Positions 1,695-42,847 are shown, counted from the stretch's first letter. The stretch is DNA of 42,847 bases from a virus (IMGVR_UViG_3300045988_015629); one strand, 5' to 3'. The notes: a model not told the origin generated them from the letters alone. A program made the numbers and translations.

Positions 1695-2396
1695 TTATTT
1701 CCTCAGGGCTTTAAGTTGCCGTTCAAATTCGGCAGGGTTCGATTTATACAGGGCTAAACGCTCTGCTTCACTCATGTCTTTAAACGCTGGTGCGGCCCCG
1801 CCGCCTTTGCTACCGGAAGCCCCGCCGCCGGAAGCTGCATTTGCTTTAATCAAATGCGAAAACGCTTTATGTTCGCGCAGGTATTTGCGGAACTGTTCCG
1901 GGTCAGTTGTGACTACGTTGCCATCCGCGCCGACAAACTTAGTAACCACATCATCACCTTCAAACTCAGTCTTAACGAACGGCGCGAGAATGTCTACTGC
2001 TTCCGGGGTAATGAAGTCACCCGCGAAAGAACCTAACACCGCTTTGCGTTCGCTGCCGAGGATGCGCTCTGCCATTCTGGAGATGCGACCATCTTTCTCG
2101 GCTAACACCGGGTCATACTGGCTACGAATCGTCTTTTCGAACTCGTCCATCTTACCGGCGGCTTTCAGGGCCTCCTGGTGTGCACGCTGCCGCTCTTCTT
2201 CGGCCTCTTTTGCTTTACGAGCGGCTTCTTTCTTCTCGTTCAGCAATGCTTCCTGGTTAGCCTTAAGCCCGGCGACTTCTTTCTCAATCAGCGCCTGCAC
2301 TTCTTCGGCTGTGTACATTTTAGGTGCGTCACCGCCCCCTGATTTATCTTCTGCTCCAGCTTCTTCCTGGAACGGATAACGTAAAAAACGATTCAT
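1695..2396 (-). CDS. scaffolding protein
   Basis: A/E/K-rich predicted coiled-coil protein directly upstream of the capsid gene; track ORF extends to 2450 but the internal ATG at 2396 (MNRFLRYPF) is the likelier start. Confidence 0.55.
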   Translation of the reverse strand: MNRFLRYPFQEEAGAEDKSGGGDAPKMYTAEEVQALIEKEVAGLKANQEALLNEKKEAARKAKEAEEERQRAHQEALKAAGKMDEFEKTIRSQYDPVLAEKDGRISRMAERILGSERKAVLGSFAGDFITPEAVDILAPFVKTEFEGDDVVTKFVGADGNVVTTDPEQFRKYLREHKAFSHLIKANAASGGGASGSKGGGAAPAFKDMSEAERLALYKSNPAEFERQLKALRK

Positions 2397-2478
2397 AGTC
2401 AGTATGTCCCCTGGACGTTGGAACCCGGGCCACCCGGATTTACATGTCAAGAATAAATTATTCCAACATACAAGGCAA

Positions 2479-2742
2479 CTATTCCAGAATATTCCTCACG
2501 TAATCCTGCAACATGAACACTTTAAGTCTCAGTTGCCGTACACATTCTGCGTTCTGGACGTCAATAGCTAAATCCTCGTCCGCGTCGCTACTTGGCGCCG
2601 CCAGTTTGCACGGCGGCTGCATCATCGTCGTATCCGGGGATGGAATTGGCGTTGGCGACGGCACGTGACTTGAGCTGCACGCGCTCAGGGTCAAAAGTGC
2701 ACACGCTGCGACCAGGCGTTTTAATGTACTTAACGACTTCAC
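2479..2742 (-). CDS. o-spanin (Rz1-like outer-membrane lipoprotein)
   Basis: Signal peptide with lipobox LTLSAC followed by a proline-rich segment; starts inside the Rz-like gene in another frame and extends past its stop. Confidence 0.6.
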   Translation of the reverse strand: MKSLSTLKRLVAACALLTLSACSSSHVPSPTPIPSPDTTMMQPPCKLAAPSSDADEDLAIDVQNAECVRQLRLKVFMLQDYVRNILE

Positions 2743-2974
2743 GGGTGATTACCTCTGATTTCGTCTTGCCTTCGTTGTCAGCGGCGGCGGCCTTTGATTC
2801 GTCCTGCTGCTGCCGTTGTGTTTTCTTCGCTAACTCAGCCTGTGCTTTCTGCTGTTGCTGCGAAACGAGATTCGCCCGGCCTTCGTTCCAGCCGCTGCGG
2901 TACTGGTAGATGCCGTGTGCGTAAGCCAGGATGATGAAACATGCCCCCGCTACGACAGTTGCTTTAAGATTCAT
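2588..2974 (-). CDS. i-spanin (Rz-like)
   Basis: N-terminal transmembrane anchor, Q/K/E-rich coiled coil, overlapping partner lipoprotein ORF. Confidence 0.65.
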   Translation of the reverse strand: MNLKATVVAGACFIILAYAHGIYQYRSGWNEGRANLVSQQQQKAQAELAKKTQRQQQDESKAAAADNEGKTKSEVITREVVKYIKTPGRSVCTFDPERVQLKSRAVANANSIPGYDDDAAAVQTGGAK

Positions 2975-2996
2975 GTTTCCCCTTTCTCGATAAGTA

Positions 2997-3020
2997 AAGC
3001 CCCGCCTTAAAGCGGGGCGC
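2997..3020 (-). terminator. terminator-like hairpin (GCCCCGC-loop-GCGGGGC) with a short U-tract, between conserved element A and the spanin start
   Basis: GC stem-loop then TTTACTT on the minus strand; weak U-run so possibly conditional. Confidence 0.4.
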
Positions 3021-3144
3021 TAGTCCTTATCATTTAAACATAGAAACGGCGTAATCTCAGTAAACCAGTTACTTTTTACACAAGCAATAGAGTATGGCCC
3101 TTCCGAACGCGTCAGCGTAACTACACTCAGGACTTACGTCCCGC

Positions 3145-3235
3145 TCCGTTACCTGCCCGCGCCGCGGTCGCTTGTTCATACTTCACAAGCTCAGGTGGAG
3201 CTTAGCACATTTTTGGTGAAAAGTCAACTATTCGA
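3145..3235 (-). promoter_or_regulatory. conserved promoter-plus-leader element A (TTGACT-N17-TAAGCT, then a 38-nt core identical to element B containing a hairpin)
   Basis: -35 at 3222-3227 and -10 at 3199-3204 on the minus strand; core 3158-3195 is identical to 14005-14042. Confidence 0.55.
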
Positions 3236-3292
3236 ATAGTTTATTCCAACATTTACAATTGAGTGGAATAACTGGAATAGTCACAGGCACTA

Positions 3293-3315
3293 AAAAGCCC
3301 CTTTCGGGGCTTCAG
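3293..3315 (-). terminator. rho-independent terminator after the Ig-like gene
   Basis: GCCCCGAAAGGGGC hairpin followed by TTTTT on the minus strand. Confidence 0.7.
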
Positions 3316-3316
3316 T

Positions 3317-3778
3317 TTATTCTGGCTTAGTAACCTTCGCTGCTTTACTTACGGCCTCTATACCATCGGCATCAGTGACTTTAACGAAGTATTCACCAAC
3401 TGCGTTAACCGTCAGAGACAGAGCCTCTTCCGGGGCGTTTACCACTTCCTTCCCGTCTTTGTACCAGGTCAGTGCATATGGTGCTTTGCCCGCCTTAACT
3501 TCGACAGCGATATTTGCGCTGCCGTCTGCCAGTTCAGCGTCCTGCGGTTGTACGGAGAAATACACATCACCAGCATCCGCCAGGTACTGAATCTCATAAA
3601 GCATACCTGCCGCTGGCAGCGCAATACCGGTCTTGTCCGCAAACGGCATATCGTCCACTGGGGTTCCGAGTACACTTTCGTCTTCAATAAACACCACGTT
3701 CTCGCCAGAGCCAGACACGCGGGCGTACTGGACTACGCGACGAGACGGTACGTCAGTTACTTTGAAAAAGCCCATCAT
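3317..3778 (-). CDS. Ig-like domain protein (possible head decoration/accessory protein)
   Basis: C-terminal YALTWYKDGKEV...GEYFVKVTDADG resembles Ig-like domains; located in head module. Confidence 0.55.
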   Translation of the reverse strand: MMGFFKVTDVPSRRVVQYARVSGSGENVVFIEDESVLGTPVDDMPFADKTGIALPAAGMLYEIQYLADAGDVYFSVQPQDAELADGSANIAVEVKAGKAPYALTWYKDGKEVVNAPEEALSLTVNAVGEYFVKVTDADGIEAVSKAAKVTKPE

Positions 3779-4890: not shown

Positions 4891-6372
4891 TTATTGCTGG
4901 GTGGCATCCTGCTGTTGCGCCGACTGCGGAATCTCGCCAGTTACCTGAGTAACAGCGCCTAACGGCACAGGTGCATCCTCAATAGCCGTTGTAATCTCCT
5001 CGTCAGTCCAGTCAGTTACCCCAGCCTTACGCAACGCGGCGTAGTAAGCAGTTGCCGGTAGTAAACCGGCATTAATGTCTGCCATCCACTGCGCACGGTC
5101 CTGAGCGGTCATTGGTTGCAGGAAGAATTCCATATTCAGCTTGAACTCAATTTCCGTTCCTTCGCGTAGACCCAGCATCGCAGCCACCCAACGCAACGCT
5201 TCGGTGTACGCCATGCTTACGTTACGCGCAATGGTTGCCATTGCGGACGTATCGGCAGCACGTTGCAGGCGAGCGGATTCGGCGGTGATTTGCTGCGTAG
5301 GCGTGATAAGCTGTGCACCAATCCGGATTGCCTGATTCTCTTTATCCAACATGTTCTGTTTGGCGAGGTTATTCTCTCCCGCCTGGACCAGAAACGCGTT
5401 GCCGCCGTAGCCGATATTGTGGCCCGAACGTGAACCCATACGTACGCCGTGGGGGTTGGCCTCTTTCCATTGCACCATGCTCATGTTCTCACCGGGGGCG
5501 ATGAACAGAGTGGGCTGGCCTACAACGAAGCTAGATTCCTCATTGTCTGCGCTGTTGCGAAAATGCCCGATATTAAGCTCAGCTAACGGCAGCAAAGGCG
5601 CATCATCAACCGTCGCGTCGTTGTTGCTGGCCCCGATGAACGTGAACGGGATTTTACCGCGCAACTGTTCGCCCAGTTCCGGGAAGATTTCTATTACTTC
5701 GTCTTGCGCGCCGCCTTCCGCATCGAATCGGTATATGCGCTGACGGTAGCGCCCGTCAATCAAGTCGAGAACGCGGTATTGTTCCCCAGACTTGGTTTCA
5801 AACTCGGCTCCAGGTTCTGAATATTCCCATACCTCACGCAGCACTACCATCGTAACGCGGTTAACAGAGCCTACGCGAGTGAGTCGCCAGTTGATGATGT
5901 TCTCTGCGGTATAGAATGCGATGACCGGGTTTAATAATCCGGCGTTCTGTTCGGCTGCCGTCGCTGCCGCTGTCTCCGGCGCATCCACCAGTAAACCGCC
6001 ACGACCCACCGAGTCAATCTCCATCAGCGTATCCTGCGCGTGCTGCCACAGGCCAACACCCGAGCCATCGGCATTGCGTAACAGGTATTCCAGTTCACGT
6101 GGAATAATCTGCTCCGGGTCTTTTCGCATTACCGAGCCAACCATACCCGACAGGGTACGCTTGGTGAAATTGTAGCAGATAGCGCCGTTCTCGTATTCTT
6201 CCTGGCGCTGGGCTGCATAAGTTGGGTCCGGCTCGTTCTTCCCGACGTTTCGCAGATAGCGGATAAGGTCACCCTCCAGTGCGTGGCGCACCTTCTGCCA
6301 TTTATCGAAGTGATGCAGCCATTCCCGGTGTTTTGTCTTAACACCCTGATTCTGACCGTTCATAGTTAACAT
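4891..6372 (-). CDS. portal protein
   Basis: 493-aa ORF between large terminase and Mu-F-like gene, the canonical portal position. Confidence 0.7.
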   Translation of the reverse strand: MLTMNGQNQGVKTKHREWLHHFDKWQKVRHALEGDLIRYLRNVGKNEPDPTYAAQRQEEYENGAICYNFTKRTLSGMVGSVMRKDPEQIIPRELEYLLRNADGSGVGLWQHAQDTLMEIDSVGRGGLLVDAPETAAATAAEQNAGLLNPVIAFYTAENIINWRLTRVGSVNRVTMVVLREVWEYSEPGAEFETKSGEQYRVLDLIDGRYRQRIYRFDAEGGAQDEVIEIFPELGEQLRGKIPFTFIGASNNDATVDDAPLLPLAELNIGHFRNSADNEESSFVVGQPTLFIAPGENMSMVQWKEANPHGVRMGSRSGHNIGYGGNAFLVQAGENNLAKQNMLDKENQAIRIGAQLITPTQQITAESARLQRAADTSAMATIARNVSMAYTEALRWVAAMLGLREGTEIEFKLNMEFFLQPMTAQDRAQWMADINAGLLPATAYYAALRKAGVTDWTDEEITTAIEDAPVPLGAVTQVTGEIPQSAQQQDATQQ

Positions 6373-10094: not shown

Positions 10095-10583
10095 TCAACC
10101 TTTCACCGCACGCCCGATTGCCTCAGCCTCCTGCCACGGTTTACCGTCGAACAATGCCAGACGTCCTGCGGTACGGCGACGCAGGCCAAGTAACGGTTTG
10201 CCGTTCTGGTTGATGAACAGCGCCAGCTTAGCCCGCAGCGTCGTAATATCACCCGAACGCAGCGCCTTACCGGTTCCGGTAGTAGCTGCTATCACACCAG
10301 CACCTGCGTTATACACCAGGTCACACACCGCATCGAACTGTGCCTGTGTAAGCGAATGGTGTGCTGCTGCGTCAACAGCAGCTACAGCCTTAGCCATATC
10401 GCGATTCAGTAACAGCAAGCCCTGTCCTGGTGTGATGGTCTTACCTGGTGTTACGTCTGGCCCGTAGTGACCATAACCAATAGTCAGGTACTTCTCGTTC
10501 GGCGTAGCGCGATACGCAGTTCCGCGGAATCCCTCGAACGCGGCACAGAAATGCAATCCATTATCTGAAATATTTCGAGACAC
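10095..10583 (-). CDS. endolysin, lysozyme-like muramidase (GH24-type)
   Basis: FEGFRGTAYRATPNEKYLTIGYGH matches the catalytic signature of T4/lambda-type phage lysozymes. Confidence 0.85.
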   Translation of the reverse strand: MSRNISDNGLHFCAAFEGFRGTAYRATPNEKYLTIGYGHYGPDVTPGKTITPGQGLLLLNRDMAKAVAAVDAAAHHSLTQAQFDAVCDLVYNAGAGVIAATTGTGKALRSGDITTLRAKLALFINQNGKPLLGLRRRTAGRLALFDGKPWQEAEAIGRAVKG

Positions 10584-10863
10584 GCTTATGCCCTCCGTAT
10601 GACAGCCACGCCTGGCGAATCTGGCGCAGCGCGACTAATGTGATTAATGTCTCAGGCAGCGTAGGCGACATGCTGCCCTGTAACAGGTGAATACATCCGG
10701 CGGCACAGACGATAGCAGTCAGGATATAGAGAACACGCCCGAACAGCCCGTCGTCCACGCGTTCATTATACACGTTGAACAGGGACGAAGCGCCCATTGA
10801 AAGCATTGTGACAAACCAGAATAGCTCAGTCATGCGGTCCTCCTGGGCGGGCAATATCGCCAC
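10561..10863 (-). CDS. membrane protein, holin or antiholin-like
   Basis: Two predicted hydrophobic helices; adjacent to holin and endolysin. Confidence 0.45.
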   Translation of the reverse strand: MAILPAQEDRMTELFWFVTMLSMGASSLFNVYNERVDDGLFGRVLYILTAIVCAAGCIHLLQGSMSPTLPETLITLVALRQIRQAWLSYGGHKRVSKYFR

Positions 10864-11134
10864 CCGATACGATGCCAGAAAGGCGGGAATAGATGGGCAT
10901 CCAGAGAACGGCGATAATAAAGCCCAGGCCAGCTATCTCACGCTCACCGGTAATACCGAACCATTGAGCGGCAAGAGGTGCACCGAAAATAGCACACGCG
11001 AAGCCGGTGAGAAGAAATACCAGTCCGTCAATCGGCCCGGATATAGACTTTTTATGTTGTCTTAGCCCGACCAATCCACCGACCAGTGCGGCAGCGAGAA
11101 GCCACCCCGTCACTGTTTCAGTAAATTTATCCAA
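10826..11134 (-). CDS. holin (putative, 3 hydrophobic segments)
   Basis: Three hydrophobic helices, charged C-terminus, directly upstream of endolysin; apparent TTG start with strong GGAGGA RBS. Confidence 0.55.
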   Translation of the reverse strand: MDKFTETVTGWLLAAALVGGLVGLRQHKKSISGPIDGLVFLLTGFACAIFGAPLAAQWFGITGEREIAGLGFIIAVLWMPIYSRLSGIVSGGDIARPGGPHD

Positions 11135-13143: not shown

Positions 13144-13332
13144 TCATACCAGAACCTCACATTCATCCCGATACACGAACAATAACGACCCTTTGTACTC
13201 AATCATAAAACCATAATGGTTGATGCTGAACGCCGGAAAAACATCACCTACCGAGATACCGAAATCTATAAGCCTGCGGTCAGTTATACGGACAAGCCTG
13301 CGGTCAGTTATACGGATTCGCATTAACGGCAA
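13144..13332 (-). CDS. hypothetical protein containing an 8-aa tandem repeat
   Basis: Encodes RITDRRLV RITDRRLI from a 24-bp tandem duplication at 13269-13316. Confidence 0.35.
   Translation of the reverse strand: MPLMRIRITDRRLVRITDRRLIDFGISVGDVFPAFSINHYGFMIEYKGSLLFVYRDECEVLV
13269..13316. repeat. 24-bp tandem direct repeat x2 (AGCCTGCGGTCAGTTATACGGA core)
   Basis: Two adjacent copies, 23/24 identical, read directly. Confidence 0.8.
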
Positions 13333-13714: not shown

Positions 13715-13743
13715 AACCCTCACTCCTCTGTCTCGTTTCGATA

Positions 13744-13779
13744 AGTGAATAGTATCCTATTATGTTGGGGTGTGCAAGA
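13744..13779 (-). promoter_or_regulatory. conserved 36-bp early promoter element (minus-strand TTGCAC-N17-TACTAT; contains GAATAG-N4-CTATTA dyad)
   Basis: About 33/36 identical to 35655-35690 in the opposite orientation. Confidence 0.55.
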
Positions 13780-13822: not shown

Positions 13823-13880
13823 GCGAGCGAAACGAAACGAACGTGGTGCCGAAGGCACCAAGAGTGAGTGAGTGAGCTTG
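13823..13880. repeat. short tandem repeats flanking a hairpin: (CGAAA)2-3, GGTGCC-GAA-GGCACC, (GAGT)4
   Basis: Read directly; lies in the 457-bp divergent control region. Confidence 0.7.
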
Positions 13881-13989
13881 CGGATATAACCCACGGCAAA
13901 TCAGTAACTTAGATATTTAGGCGGGAATTACAATAGACTTTGGGCCTCCCAAACGCGCCAGCGAGCCTCACTCCACACGCTACACGTGC

Positions 13990-14080
13990 TCGTTTCGCCT
14001 GCCGCGCGCCGCGGTCGCTTGTTCATACTTCACAAGCTCAGGCTGAGCTTACCATATTTTTAAGTAAAAGTCAATACCGG
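13990..14080 (-). promoter_or_regulatory. conserved promoter-plus-leader element B (paralog of element A)
   Basis: -35 TTGACT at 14069-14074 and -10 TAAGCT at 14046-14051 on the minus strand; core 14005-14042 identical to 3158-3195. Confidence 0.55.
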
Positions 14081-17264: not shown

Positions 17265-17285
17265 GCCAATTACTCCTTAGTCAGT

Positions 17286-17357
17286 TGATATGTGAATAGT
17301 ACCATATTAATTATTTTAGAAAAGCCCATTGACAAGTGAATAGTTCGCTATTATAGT
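17286..17357. promoter_or_regulatory. divergent promoter/operator region: plus-strand TTGACA-N17-TATAGT at 17329-17357 and two GAATAG-N4-(C/A)TATTA dyads
   Basis: Dyads at about 17294-17309 and 17338-17353. Confidence 0.55.
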
Positions 17358-17388
17358 TAGCCCATACCAAACGAGAGGAGAGAAACAA

Positions 17389-19477: not shown

Positions 19478-19506
19478 TTGACACCCGAATAGTTAGCTAT
19501 TATAGT
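19478..19506 (+). promoter_or_regulatory. conserved promoter TTGACA-N17-TATAGT with embedded GAATAG-N4-CTATTA dyad
   Basis: About 25/29 identical to the 17329-17357 promoter. Confidence 0.55.
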
Positions 19507-19559
19507 TCTAATCACTGGCCGGGCAGTTCCCGGAGTAAACTGAAAAGCGAGAAATCACG

Positions 19560-22628: not shown

Positions 22629-22916
22629 ATGAGTACGCCTGAGGGGCGCGTGCAGAAATACGCAAAAGAGCGATTCGAGGCCCTGGGAGGCCTCGTACGC
22701 AAATTGTCGTACGAAAATAGAGCGGGCGCCCCCGACCTGCTGGTAATTCTCCCTGGTGGCATCATCTGGTTCGTCGAGGTTAAGAAAGACGAAAACACGA
22801 AGCCGGACCCGCACCAGTTACGAGAGCACGAGCGGATGCGTAAACGTGGTGCAAATGTTTTTGTCGTTGGTTCGTTTAAACAGGTTGACGACCTAATAGC
22901 GGGCTATTATAGTTAA
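22629..22916 (+). CDS. VRR-NUC domain nuclease
   Basis: PDLLVIL...WFVEVKKD PD-(D/E)XK arrangement typical of VRR-NUC; 95 aa. Confidence 0.65.
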   Translation: MSTPEGRVQKYAKERFEALGGLVRKLSYENRAGAPDLLVILPGGIIWFVEVKKDENTKPDPHQLREHERMRKRGANVFVVGSFKQVDDLIAGYYS

Positions 22917-42712: not shown

Positions 42713-42847
42713 TTAAGATACAATTGCTCCGGTGCTGCTGGAGATAATATTACCGTATACATCGTGGACAACCACTTTATACGTACCGGAATCGGTAGTA
42801 GCGAGCGAAGTTTTCTCGTAGGTGGCGGCGGTAGCGCCTGGGATAGC
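42713..42847 (-). CDS. Ig-like domain virion protein, C-terminal part of the junction-spanning gene (see 1..271)
   Basis: Frame continuous with 1..271 across the terminal overlap; stop codon at 42713-42715. Confidence 0.6.
   Translation of the reverse strand, partial: AIPGATAATYEKTSLATTDSGTYKVVVHDVYGNIISSSTGAIVS
42793..42847. repeat. 55-bp exact terminal direct repeat (identical to 1-55)
   Basis: Direct comparison of the first and last 55 nt. Confidence 0.95.

Follow-up and report, generated by a model that had tools for sequence, protein, structure and literature searches.

A probable Jersey-family two-component spanin encoded by overlapping genes among the head genes of a Kagunavirus

Do two overlapping genes that lie among the head genes of a phage, some 7 kb from its holin and endolysin genes, encode a spanin, and does their location tie outer-membrane disruption to late capsid expression? 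Both proposals came from a sequence-only reading of the viral DNA IMGVR_UViG_3300045988_015629 (42,847 nt; the whole stretch is called the window here), in which an Rz-like membrane protein and an out-of-frame, Rz1-like lipoprotein were recognized directly behind a conserved element, element A. Here the coding potential, family membership, genomic position and upstream control region of the pair are considered in turn.

The window is a complete Kagunavirus genome (Guernseyvirinae, a K1G-like coliphage). Its terminal 55 bases are duplicated at both ends (1-55 = 42793-42847), so it represents a circularly closed assembly of 42,792 bp. Over the spanin region it is 95-99% identical to many Escherichia Kagunavirus phages (K1G, K1ind1-3, Sciku, JSSK01) and 72-80% identical to Salmonella Jerseyviruses. 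The pair was found at exactly the coordinates first given (2479-2974) and lies, as claimed, between the Ig/Hoc-like gene and the scaffold gene (Table 1). The order Ig/Hoc-like gene, spanins, scaffold and major capsid is kept in Kagunavirus, Jerseyvirus, Cornellvirus and Serratia phage Tsm2. A predicted bidirectional hairpin terminator after the Ig/Hoc-like gene would close the transcription unit upstream of the spanin region.

Table 1. Predicted features of the spanin locus and related regions of the window
Feature	Position	Strand	Remarks
Major capsid gene	643-1692	minus	Beyond the scaffold gene
Scaffold gene	1695-2450	minus	Downstream neighbour of the spanin pair
Second palindrome copy, GGAATAATTTATTC	2451-2464	minus	15 nt past the o-spanin stop, ahead of the scaffold gene
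o-spanin gene (lipoprotein precursor)	2479-2742	minus	GTG start; 264 nt; 87 aa; +1 frame relative to i-spanin
Dual-frame stretch, 155 nt	2588-2742	minus	i-spanin C-terminus / o-spanin signal peptide and Pro-rich linker
o-spanin lipobox L-S-A-C (residues 19-22)	2677-2688	minus	Cys22 predicted to be the lipidated first mature residue; Ser at +2
o-spanin Shine-Dalgarno-like GAGG	2752-2755	minus	9 nt ahead of GTG (GAGG-N9-GTG), inside the i-spanin gene
i-spanin gene (Jersey-family inner-membrane subunit)	2588-2974	minus	ATG start; 387 nt; 128 aa
i-spanin N-terminal transmembrane anchor codons (residues 5-23, ATVVAGACFIILAYAHGIY)	2906-2962	minus	Hydropathy
i-spanin Shine-Dalgarno-like AAAGGGG	2979-2985	minus	4 nt ahead of ATG (GGGGAAAC-ATG)
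GC-rich terminator-like hairpin	2999-3018	minus	GCCCCGC-UUUAAG-GCGGGGC, then UUUACUUAU; 24 nt ahead of the i-spanin start
Structured core of leader RNA, element A copy A1	3091-3194	minus	Covariance-model match, 124 bits
Sigma-70-type promoter	3199-3227	minus	TTGACT-17 nt-TAAGCT, near consensus; heads leader and spanins
Palindrome GGAATAAACTATTC, candidate regulator-binding site	3234-3247	minus	Just upstream of the -35 hexamer of the A1 promoter
Bidirectional hairpin terminator	3295-3312	minus	After the Ig/Hoc-like gene; repeat families D2 and D6; annotated at the same place in Sciku
Ig/Hoc-like gene	3317-3778	minus	Upstream neighbour of the spanin pair
Endolysin gene	10095-10583	minus	Endolysin PHROGs; Pfam Phage_lysozyme, 5.9e-27
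Holin-family gene	10561-10863	minus	phrog_2508 'holin'
Holin-family gene	10826-11134	minus	phrog_2359 'holin'
Element A copy A2	13844-14074	minus	Promoter 14046-14074; core 13937-14041; terminator-like hairpin 13844-13860

The longer gene encodes a protein that begins MNLKATVVAGACFIILAYAHGIYQY... and that has the layout expected of an i-spanin. Residues 5-23 form its most hydrophobic 19-residue stretch (mean Kyte-Doolittle 1.72), giving a single N-terminal transmembrane segment with the remainder predicted to be periplasmic, and outside this segment the protein is polar or charged (29% D/E/K/R) and rich in Q, A, K and E. An AlphaFold model made from the single sequence, of low overall confidence and with low confidence past residue 65, contains one long helix (residues 3-63), within which the transmembrane residues fall, and a second helix (residues 69-79). 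The full length of the protein matches phrog_2536 'Rz-like spanin' (3.8e-57), and it is 95% identical to K1G ORF5 and 61% identical to SETP3 gp07. Its Cys92 is invariant in an alignment of Kagunavirus, Jerseyvirus, Cornellvirus and Serratia phage Tsm2 proteins.

The shorter gene is predicted to encode a lipoprotein precursor whose N-terminus reads MKSLSTLKRLVAACALLTLSAC/SSSHVPSPTPIPSP..., with cleavage at the slash. Its signal sequence carries basic residues at K2, K8 and R9, followed by the hydrophobic stretch LVAACALLTL and the L-S-A-C lipobox that had been picked out in the sequence-only reading; the site (MKSLSTLKRLVAACALLTLSA/C) is followed by Ser rather than Asp at +2, as expected of an outer-membrane lipoprotein. 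Predicted processing would leave a mature part of 66 residues that holds all eight of the protein's prolines, seven of them among its first 24 residues. The protein matches phrog_5672 (3.2e-30) and phrog_1267 (7.3e-20), both 'Rz-like spanin', and is 91% identical to K1G ORF6 and 64% identical to SETP3 gp08. In the alignment of the same four groups, Cys45 and Cys67 (precursor numbering) are invariant and the lipobox cysteine is also kept, so that periplasmic cysteines are predicted in both subunits (Cys92 in the i-spanin, Cys45 and Cys67 in the o-spanin). The C-terminal 40 residues of the o-spanin are the best-conserved part of either protein across genera. Ribosome-binding sites are annotated in Sciku at the equivalent places for both genes.

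Both genes lie on the minus strand, and the shorter one is read in the +1 frame of the longer over 155 nt. It runs a further 109 nt past the i-spanin stop (2479-2587) and is thus overlapped with the longer gene rather than embedded in it. Within the overlap, nucleotide diversity tracks the i-spanin frame, which argues that constraint on the o-spanin signal peptide and linker is loose and that these form the more tolerant partner; this is expected for such segments, but it is weaker evidence for their translation. The same observation would fit a chance overlap in which the longer membrane protein alone is made, and many GenBank records do carry either a 144-147-nt version of the short frame or no annotation of it. 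The stretch that belongs to the short frame alone speaks differently. Across 43 related loci from IMG/VR, its diversity at the three codon positions is 0.087/0.033/0.252 in the o-spanin frame, a strong constraint that, as read from these sequences, is the signature of a translated gene. Both frames are intact in the 43 loci, with identical lengths and the same 155-nt overlap, and none of the 41 distinct o-spanin homologues in this sample lacks the lipobox cysteine (position 22 or 23), which homologues from Jersey, Cornell and Serratia phages also have. Conservation of the C-terminal 40 residues points the same way. Finally, when a lipoprotein-signal filter was run on 1100 start-to-stop combinations of at least 45 aa, taken from all six frames of the whole genome, two passed, and only the o-spanin has a normal short n-region. 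With these data in hand, a chance overlap is barely credible, and we take both genes to be translated.

Judged by the criteria of Summer 2007 and Kongari 2018 for two-component spanins, the features set out above assign the pair to this class. The 'Jersey' family of 27 overlapped spanin pairs, which lists Jersey, K1G, K1H, K1ind1-3 and SETP3 (Kongari 2018, PMC6139136), is described as having a 155-bp gene overlap and constant Cys45 and Cys67 in the o-spanin (PMC6139136). Both subunits encoded in the window are homologous to listed members, and they share the exact 155-nt overlap and the two cysteines; together these make the pair a plain member of the described family. We therefore assign 2588-2974 and 2479-2742 to a Jersey-family two-component spanin in the overlapped arrangement, with a probability of roughly 0.9, on the grounds of signal-sequence architecture and family membership. 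The sequence-only reading was correct in each of these respects: the transmembrane anchor of the Rz-like protein, the proline-rich, Rz1-like lipoprotein with its lipobox, and the spanin identity of both. For the coiled coil that it also proposed in the Rz-like protein, the long helix of the low-confidence AlphaFold model offers a partial check. Recognition of spanins from sequence alone is thereby confirmed as feasible.

Profile searches place the pair outside the sequence families of lambda. A Pfam search with both proteins gave neither the Rz nor the Rz1 family even at E values up to 0.1, the sole match for the pair being DUF2514 (E = 0.0093, below the cut-off). In NCBIfam there were only sub-threshold lipoprotein and P2_Rz1 matches (P2_Rz1, 15.8 bits against a cut-off of 27; E = 0.011). 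The pair thus falls outside the lambda Rz/Rz1 sequence families, although it is expected to be Rz/Rz1-like in its working.

Genes at the same position are annotated as spanins in K1G, Sciku, SETP3, Bas76, fBC-Eco01 and many other GenBank records; the K1G entry reads 'ORF6 ... overlapping gene', and Sciku names an i-spanin and an o-spanin, citing the K1G proteins. Several records of the phage group shorten the o-spanin to 144-147 nt, losing the lipoprotein signal, and some leave it unannotated or name the pair 'hypothetical', which is a practical concern for annotation.

The position of the pair is also as first stated. The holin and endolysin genes form a block at 10095-11134, on the same strand and 7.1 kb upstream of the spanins in the direction of transcription, and the space between endolysin and spanins is taken up by small ORFs and by terminase, portal, head-morphogenesis and Ig/Hoc-like genes. 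This layout had already been published: the genome announcement of a related phage reports spanin genes apart from the holin/antiholin-endolysin genes (PMC6763661), and the descriptions of Golestan and fBC-Eco01 give the same arrangement, with spanins apart from the lysis cassette. Because the pair, its overlap and its separate position are already described for this phage group, the spanin finding is an ordinary one, and there is nothing new in the spanins themselves.

Such a position could be taken to mean that the pair is spanin-shaped but serves another envelope function, for example as a lipoprotein that excludes superinfection or masks a receptor together with a membrane partner, and that something else disrupts the outer membrane. 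The genes do lie among head genes outside the lysis cassette and lack sequence similarity to the tested Rz/Rz1 of lambda, and our literature search found no experiment on any Jersey-family spanin. A second or unimolecular spanin adjoining the endolysin gene was considered and rejected by the genome-wide lipobox scan: only one ORF in the genome has a credible lipoprotein signal, which leaves no other spanin candidate, and the ORFs after the endolysin gene match PHROG families of unknown function and no spanin families. Moreover, the full set of spanin hallmarks (transmembrane protein, proline-rich lipoprotein, overlap and periplasmic cysteines) is kept across three genera. In T4, pseT.3/pseT.2 are established spanin genes that lie away from the lysis cassette (PMC6139136), so that a position outside the cassette is compatible with spanin function. 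A different envelope function is accordingly improbable in our judgement. With the pair read as a spanin, the genome holds a full lysis set of two holin-family proteins, an endolysin and a two-component spanin.

Lambda Rz/Rz1 is the established model of spanin action, and the mechanism that we infer for the pair in the window is built on it. The N-terminal transmembrane helix would anchor the i-spanin in the inner membrane, from which a largely helical domain would extend into the periplasm. The o-spanin would be exported, lipidated on Cys22 and, having Ser rather than Asp at +2, sorted to the inner leaflet of the outer membrane, from which it would reach inward via its proline-rich linker. 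Binding between the C-terminal parts of the two proteins would then produce a complex that crosses the periplasm through the peptidoglycan mesh, probably with intermolecular disulfides involving Cys92 of the i-spanin and Cys45 and Cys67 of the o-spanin. Restrained by this mesh, complexes would build up harmlessly late in infection until the holins release endolysin and the wall is degraded; the freed complexes would fuse or otherwise disrupt the outer membrane, completing lysis. Because the wall restrains the spanin, its genes would need no co-transcription with those for holin and endolysin. They would instead be expressed from behind their own promoter and leader, with the scaffold and major capsid genes apparently belonging to the same transcription unit.

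The second question bears on the control region upstream. The repeat underlying element A (D3, 70 nt) occurs at 3158-3227 and 14005-14074, its two copies being 89% identical, and is predicted to comprise a promoter plus the start of a leader. In the first copy (A1), the promoter coincides with a predicted host promoter at the equivalent site in fBC-Eco01, and the leader extends for about 190 nt, from 3194 to about 2990, ending 16 nt before the i-spanin start codon; the spanins do indeed stand directly behind element A. The GC-rich hairpin close to its end is the top-ranked terminator-like site on the minus strand, with a weak U-tract; it is annotated as a terminator in fBC-Eco01, and its stem is kept by compensatory changes in SETP3-type and Cornell-type relatives. 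The second copy (A2) shares this promoter, and its leader is 75% identical to that of A1 over about 190 nt. A2 sits in a divergent control region adjoining an HTH regulator gene and heads a minus-strand block of small genes running into the holins and endolysin.

The leader is conserved more strongly than the genes on either side of it. K1G-type leaders are present in 181 GenBank records and SETP3-type leaders in 269 (95-100% identical), and K1G-type leaders are 97-100% identical where the spanin genes are 73-96% and the scaffold genes 83-94% identical. Among the genomes examined, those of Kagunavirus and Jerseyvirus carry a leader immediately before the spanins; in Cornellvirus-type phages and Tsm2 it is less clear. 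Built from Kagunavirus- and SETP3-type leaders, a covariance model finds exactly two copies in the window (the A2 core scoring 79 bits) and one in the whole Bas76 genome, and barely detects Cornellvirus-type leaders (E = 0.4-0.9).

The A1, A2 and SETP3-type leaders differ by compensatory base-pair changes. One pair of the outer stem occurs as C-G (9), U-A (9) and A-U (2), and the apical hairpin takes the forms GGGAC/GUCC, GGUGC/GCAC and GGGCG/CGCCC. RNAalifold applied to MAFFT alignments recovered the outer stem only, because indels shift the inner stems out of register, and for this reason the structure was named by hand. The structure named in this way is 83% paired, as against 28-39% when the partners are slid, counts that are biased towards this structure because it was derived from the tested sequences. 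Its covariation score, calculated for a structure named from the same sequences, lies above all 500 shuffles. Folding of the two copies as single sequences gave z-scores of -1.6 and -0.5, which are not informative alone. Rfam gave no match for the whole window at the gathering score, its best match for 2900-3340 at a relaxed E-value being E = 1.1, and ARAGORN detected neither tRNA nor tmRNA. In several records a 36-aa ORF is annotated inside the leader (3069-3179). This is probably no gene: it has no PHROG match, its frame differs between A1 and A2 despite their nucleotide similarity, relatives carry 1-nt indels inside it, and SETP3-type leaders lack the ATG.

A further shared element flanks the spanin cassette. 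The window contains just two sites of the palindrome GGAATA-N3-TATTC, where chance predicts 0.15: one directly upstream of A1 and the other between the o-spanin and scaffold genes; A2 has none. Sites at these two positions are also seen in almost every one of the roughly 60 related loci, SETP3 and Cornellvirus types among them, and in the whole Bas76 genome the two sites, at the same two positions, are the only ones. Their placement on both sides of the cassette suggests control shared with the head genes.

The proposed link to late capsid expression is plausible. The search for terminator-like sites turned up none from the end of the o-spanin gene to the start of the scaffold gene, and with the palindrome shared on both sides this makes a link between the spanins and late head-gene expression a reasonable one. 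However, the second copy of element A heads the block that runs into the holin and endolysin genes, and not a capsid operon.

It is also conceivable that spanin production is independent of late capsid expression altogether. Host polymerase would then read element A from the start of infection, the hairpin merely lowering read-through, and spanin would be made early or throughout. By its sequence the A1 promoter looks constitutive for host polymerase and on paper requires no activator, yet the -35 hexamer is poor in SETP3-type (TAGACT) and Cornell-type (TGGATT) phages, as in activator-dependent promoters. The near-identical promoter and leader of A2 stand beside the HTH gene in a divergent arrangement typical of early promoters, but A2 is missing from most relatives: roughly 43 of the 181 records with a K1G-type leader contain two places that match, and Bas76 only one. 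Early synthesis would be tolerable, since under the lambda model spanins are harmless until the wall is degraded. Against this stands the palindrome, found at A1 and not at A2, with its second copy before the scaffold gene and its subfamily-wide conservation. On balance, spanin synthesis uncoupled from the head genes is rather unlikely, and a link to late head-gene expression is retained as the plausible reading.

The conserved, structured leader and the flanking palindromes appear to be the only features here that have not been described; a literature search for transcriptomes or described RNAs of the phage group returned nothing relevant. It is possible, though doubtful, that the leader is an undescribed cis-acting RNA (acting in attenuation or antitermination, in processing or stability, or as a small RNA), with the palindromes timing spanin, scaffold and capsid expression and the duplicated copy coordinating the lysis genes. 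If functional, leader and palindromes would offer a handle on late-gene timing in Guernseyvirinae, which are widely used for therapy and biocontrol against Salmonella and E. coli.

The nearest analogies for element A are the PR'-6S RNA-tR' region of lambda, the site of Q antitermination, and the putL and putR RNAs of HK022. As in these systems, a strong promoter would yield a non-coding transcript of about 190 nt that meets a terminator before late or lysis genes, and there would be two similar structured RNA copies, each with its own promoter. Unlike them, element A has no sequence or Rfam match, its U-tract is weak, and no Q-like or N-like gene was identified.

For the spanins themselves the closest counterparts are K1G ORF5/ORF6 (ADA82248/ADA82249) and SETP3 gp07/gp08, which match the pair in gene length (387 and 264 nt), in the 155-nt overlap, in Cys45 and Cys67 of the o-spanin and in their place between the Ig/Hoc-like and scaffold genes; apart from a few amino-acid substitutions, nothing of substance separates the pair in the window from the Jersey family. 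Its likeness to lambda Rz/Rz1 is one of architecture: a type II inner-membrane protein with a helical periplasmic domain (predicted in the window), a small proline-rich outer-membrane lipoprotein read from the +1 frame of the same DNA, and periplasmic cysteines in both systems. The mechanism is presumed to be the same. In contrast to lambda, the pair has no homology to Rz/Rz1 that Pfam detects, its o-spanin gene overruns the end of the i-spanin gene where Rz1 is embedded, and it lies 7 kb from the holin and endolysin genes, which Rz/Rz1 directly follow. In this last respect it resembles T4 pseT.3/pseT.2, a two-component spanin encoded at a distance from the holin (t) and endolysin (e) genes (PMC6139136), although the T4 genes are separated from each other, belong to an unrelated sequence family and stand in another genomic context.

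The spanin cassette is headed by a module that occurs twice in the genome, each copy consisting of a sigma-70 promoter (TTGACT-17-TAAGCT), a structured non-coding leader of ~190 nt and a terminator-like hairpin. In phages whose flanking genes share 73-96% identity, this leader is conserved at 97-100%, and compensatory base-pair changes were seen within it. No family matching the leader was found in Rfam. Most relatives lack the second copy of the module. Between the terminator-like hairpin of this copy and the first gene of the block that it heads lies one of five copies of a promoter-like 30-nt motif, TTGACA...GAATAGT..CTATTATAGT, that has a palindrome within it; the fBC-Eco01 paper (PMC9825357) reported this consensus for its predicted 'phage promoters'.

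The leader also contains a 36-aa open reading frame, for which the annotations of several relatives (Sciku_007, Bas76_0007, fBC-Eco01_09) give 'hypothetical protein'. A search for a family match to this ORF returned none. The two copies of the leader have it in different reading frames, 1-nt indels fall within it in relatives, and its start codon is missing from SETP3-type leaders. Judged from the sequence, the ORF is probably non-coding.

The genome has only two copies of the palindrome GGAATA-N3-TATTC, against a chance expectation of 0.15, and these flank the leader-plus-spanin cassette on both sides. The two positions recur in nearly all of the related phage loci compared here (L001-L065), and the arrangement is kept across Kagunavirus, Jerseyvirus and Cornellvirus. 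The palindrome is a candidate binding site for a late-gene regulator.

Features of the spanin and lysis regions, with related loci
Feature	Sequence	Coordinates	Strand	Position or identity
Module copy 1	window	2990-3227	-	directly upstream of the spanins
Module copy 2	window	13844-14074	-	head of the gene block leading to holins and endolysin
36-aa ORF	window	3069-3179	-	inside the structured leader
GGAATA-N3-TATTC, site 1	window	3234-3247	-	just upstream of the -35 hexamer of the promoter
GGAATA-N3-TATTC, site 2	window	2451-2464	-	downstream of the o-spanin stop, before the scaffold gene
30-nt promoter-like motif	window	13738-13767, 17285-17314, 17329-17358, 19478-19507, 22885-22914	+	
Two holin-family genes	window	10561-11134	-	phrog_2359 and phrog_2508, different families
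Shortened o-spanin	L008 (Bas76)	5839-5982		Bas76_0009
Shortened o-spanin	L006 (S120)	1853-1996		S120 orf11
Shortened o-spanin	L003 (fBC-Eco01)	1810-1956		fBC-Eco01_11

The two holin-family genes overlap each other, the second also overlapping the endolysin start; annotations of related phages call them holin and antiholin, or else a class I and a class II holin. Elsewhere in the window, 23 nt are duplicated exactly in tandem with a 24-nt period (13270-13316, within the small ORF 13144-13332), giving the repeated peptide RITDRRL(V/I). The window begins and ends with the same 55 nt (1-55 and 42793-42847), an exact repeat that is an overlap of the assembly; the genome itself measures 42,792 bp and is circular or circularly permuted.

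In many GenBank records the o-spanin is annotated in a shortened form of 144-147 nt, which begins at an internal Met and is missing both signal peptide and lipobox; others (Serratia phage Tsm2) leave the gene out altogether. All of these records contain the complete 264-nt ORF, lipobox included. In Escherichia phage vB_VIPECOMC04 (PQ423993.1, 37823-38887) the spanin region matches as two aligned pieces spanning 1065 nt, with an HNH endonuclease annotated under the match. The split match together with this annotation suggests that a homing endonuclease has inserted into one of the spanin genes or between them, much as in the T5/Shivani case that Kongari et al. (PMC6139136) discuss.
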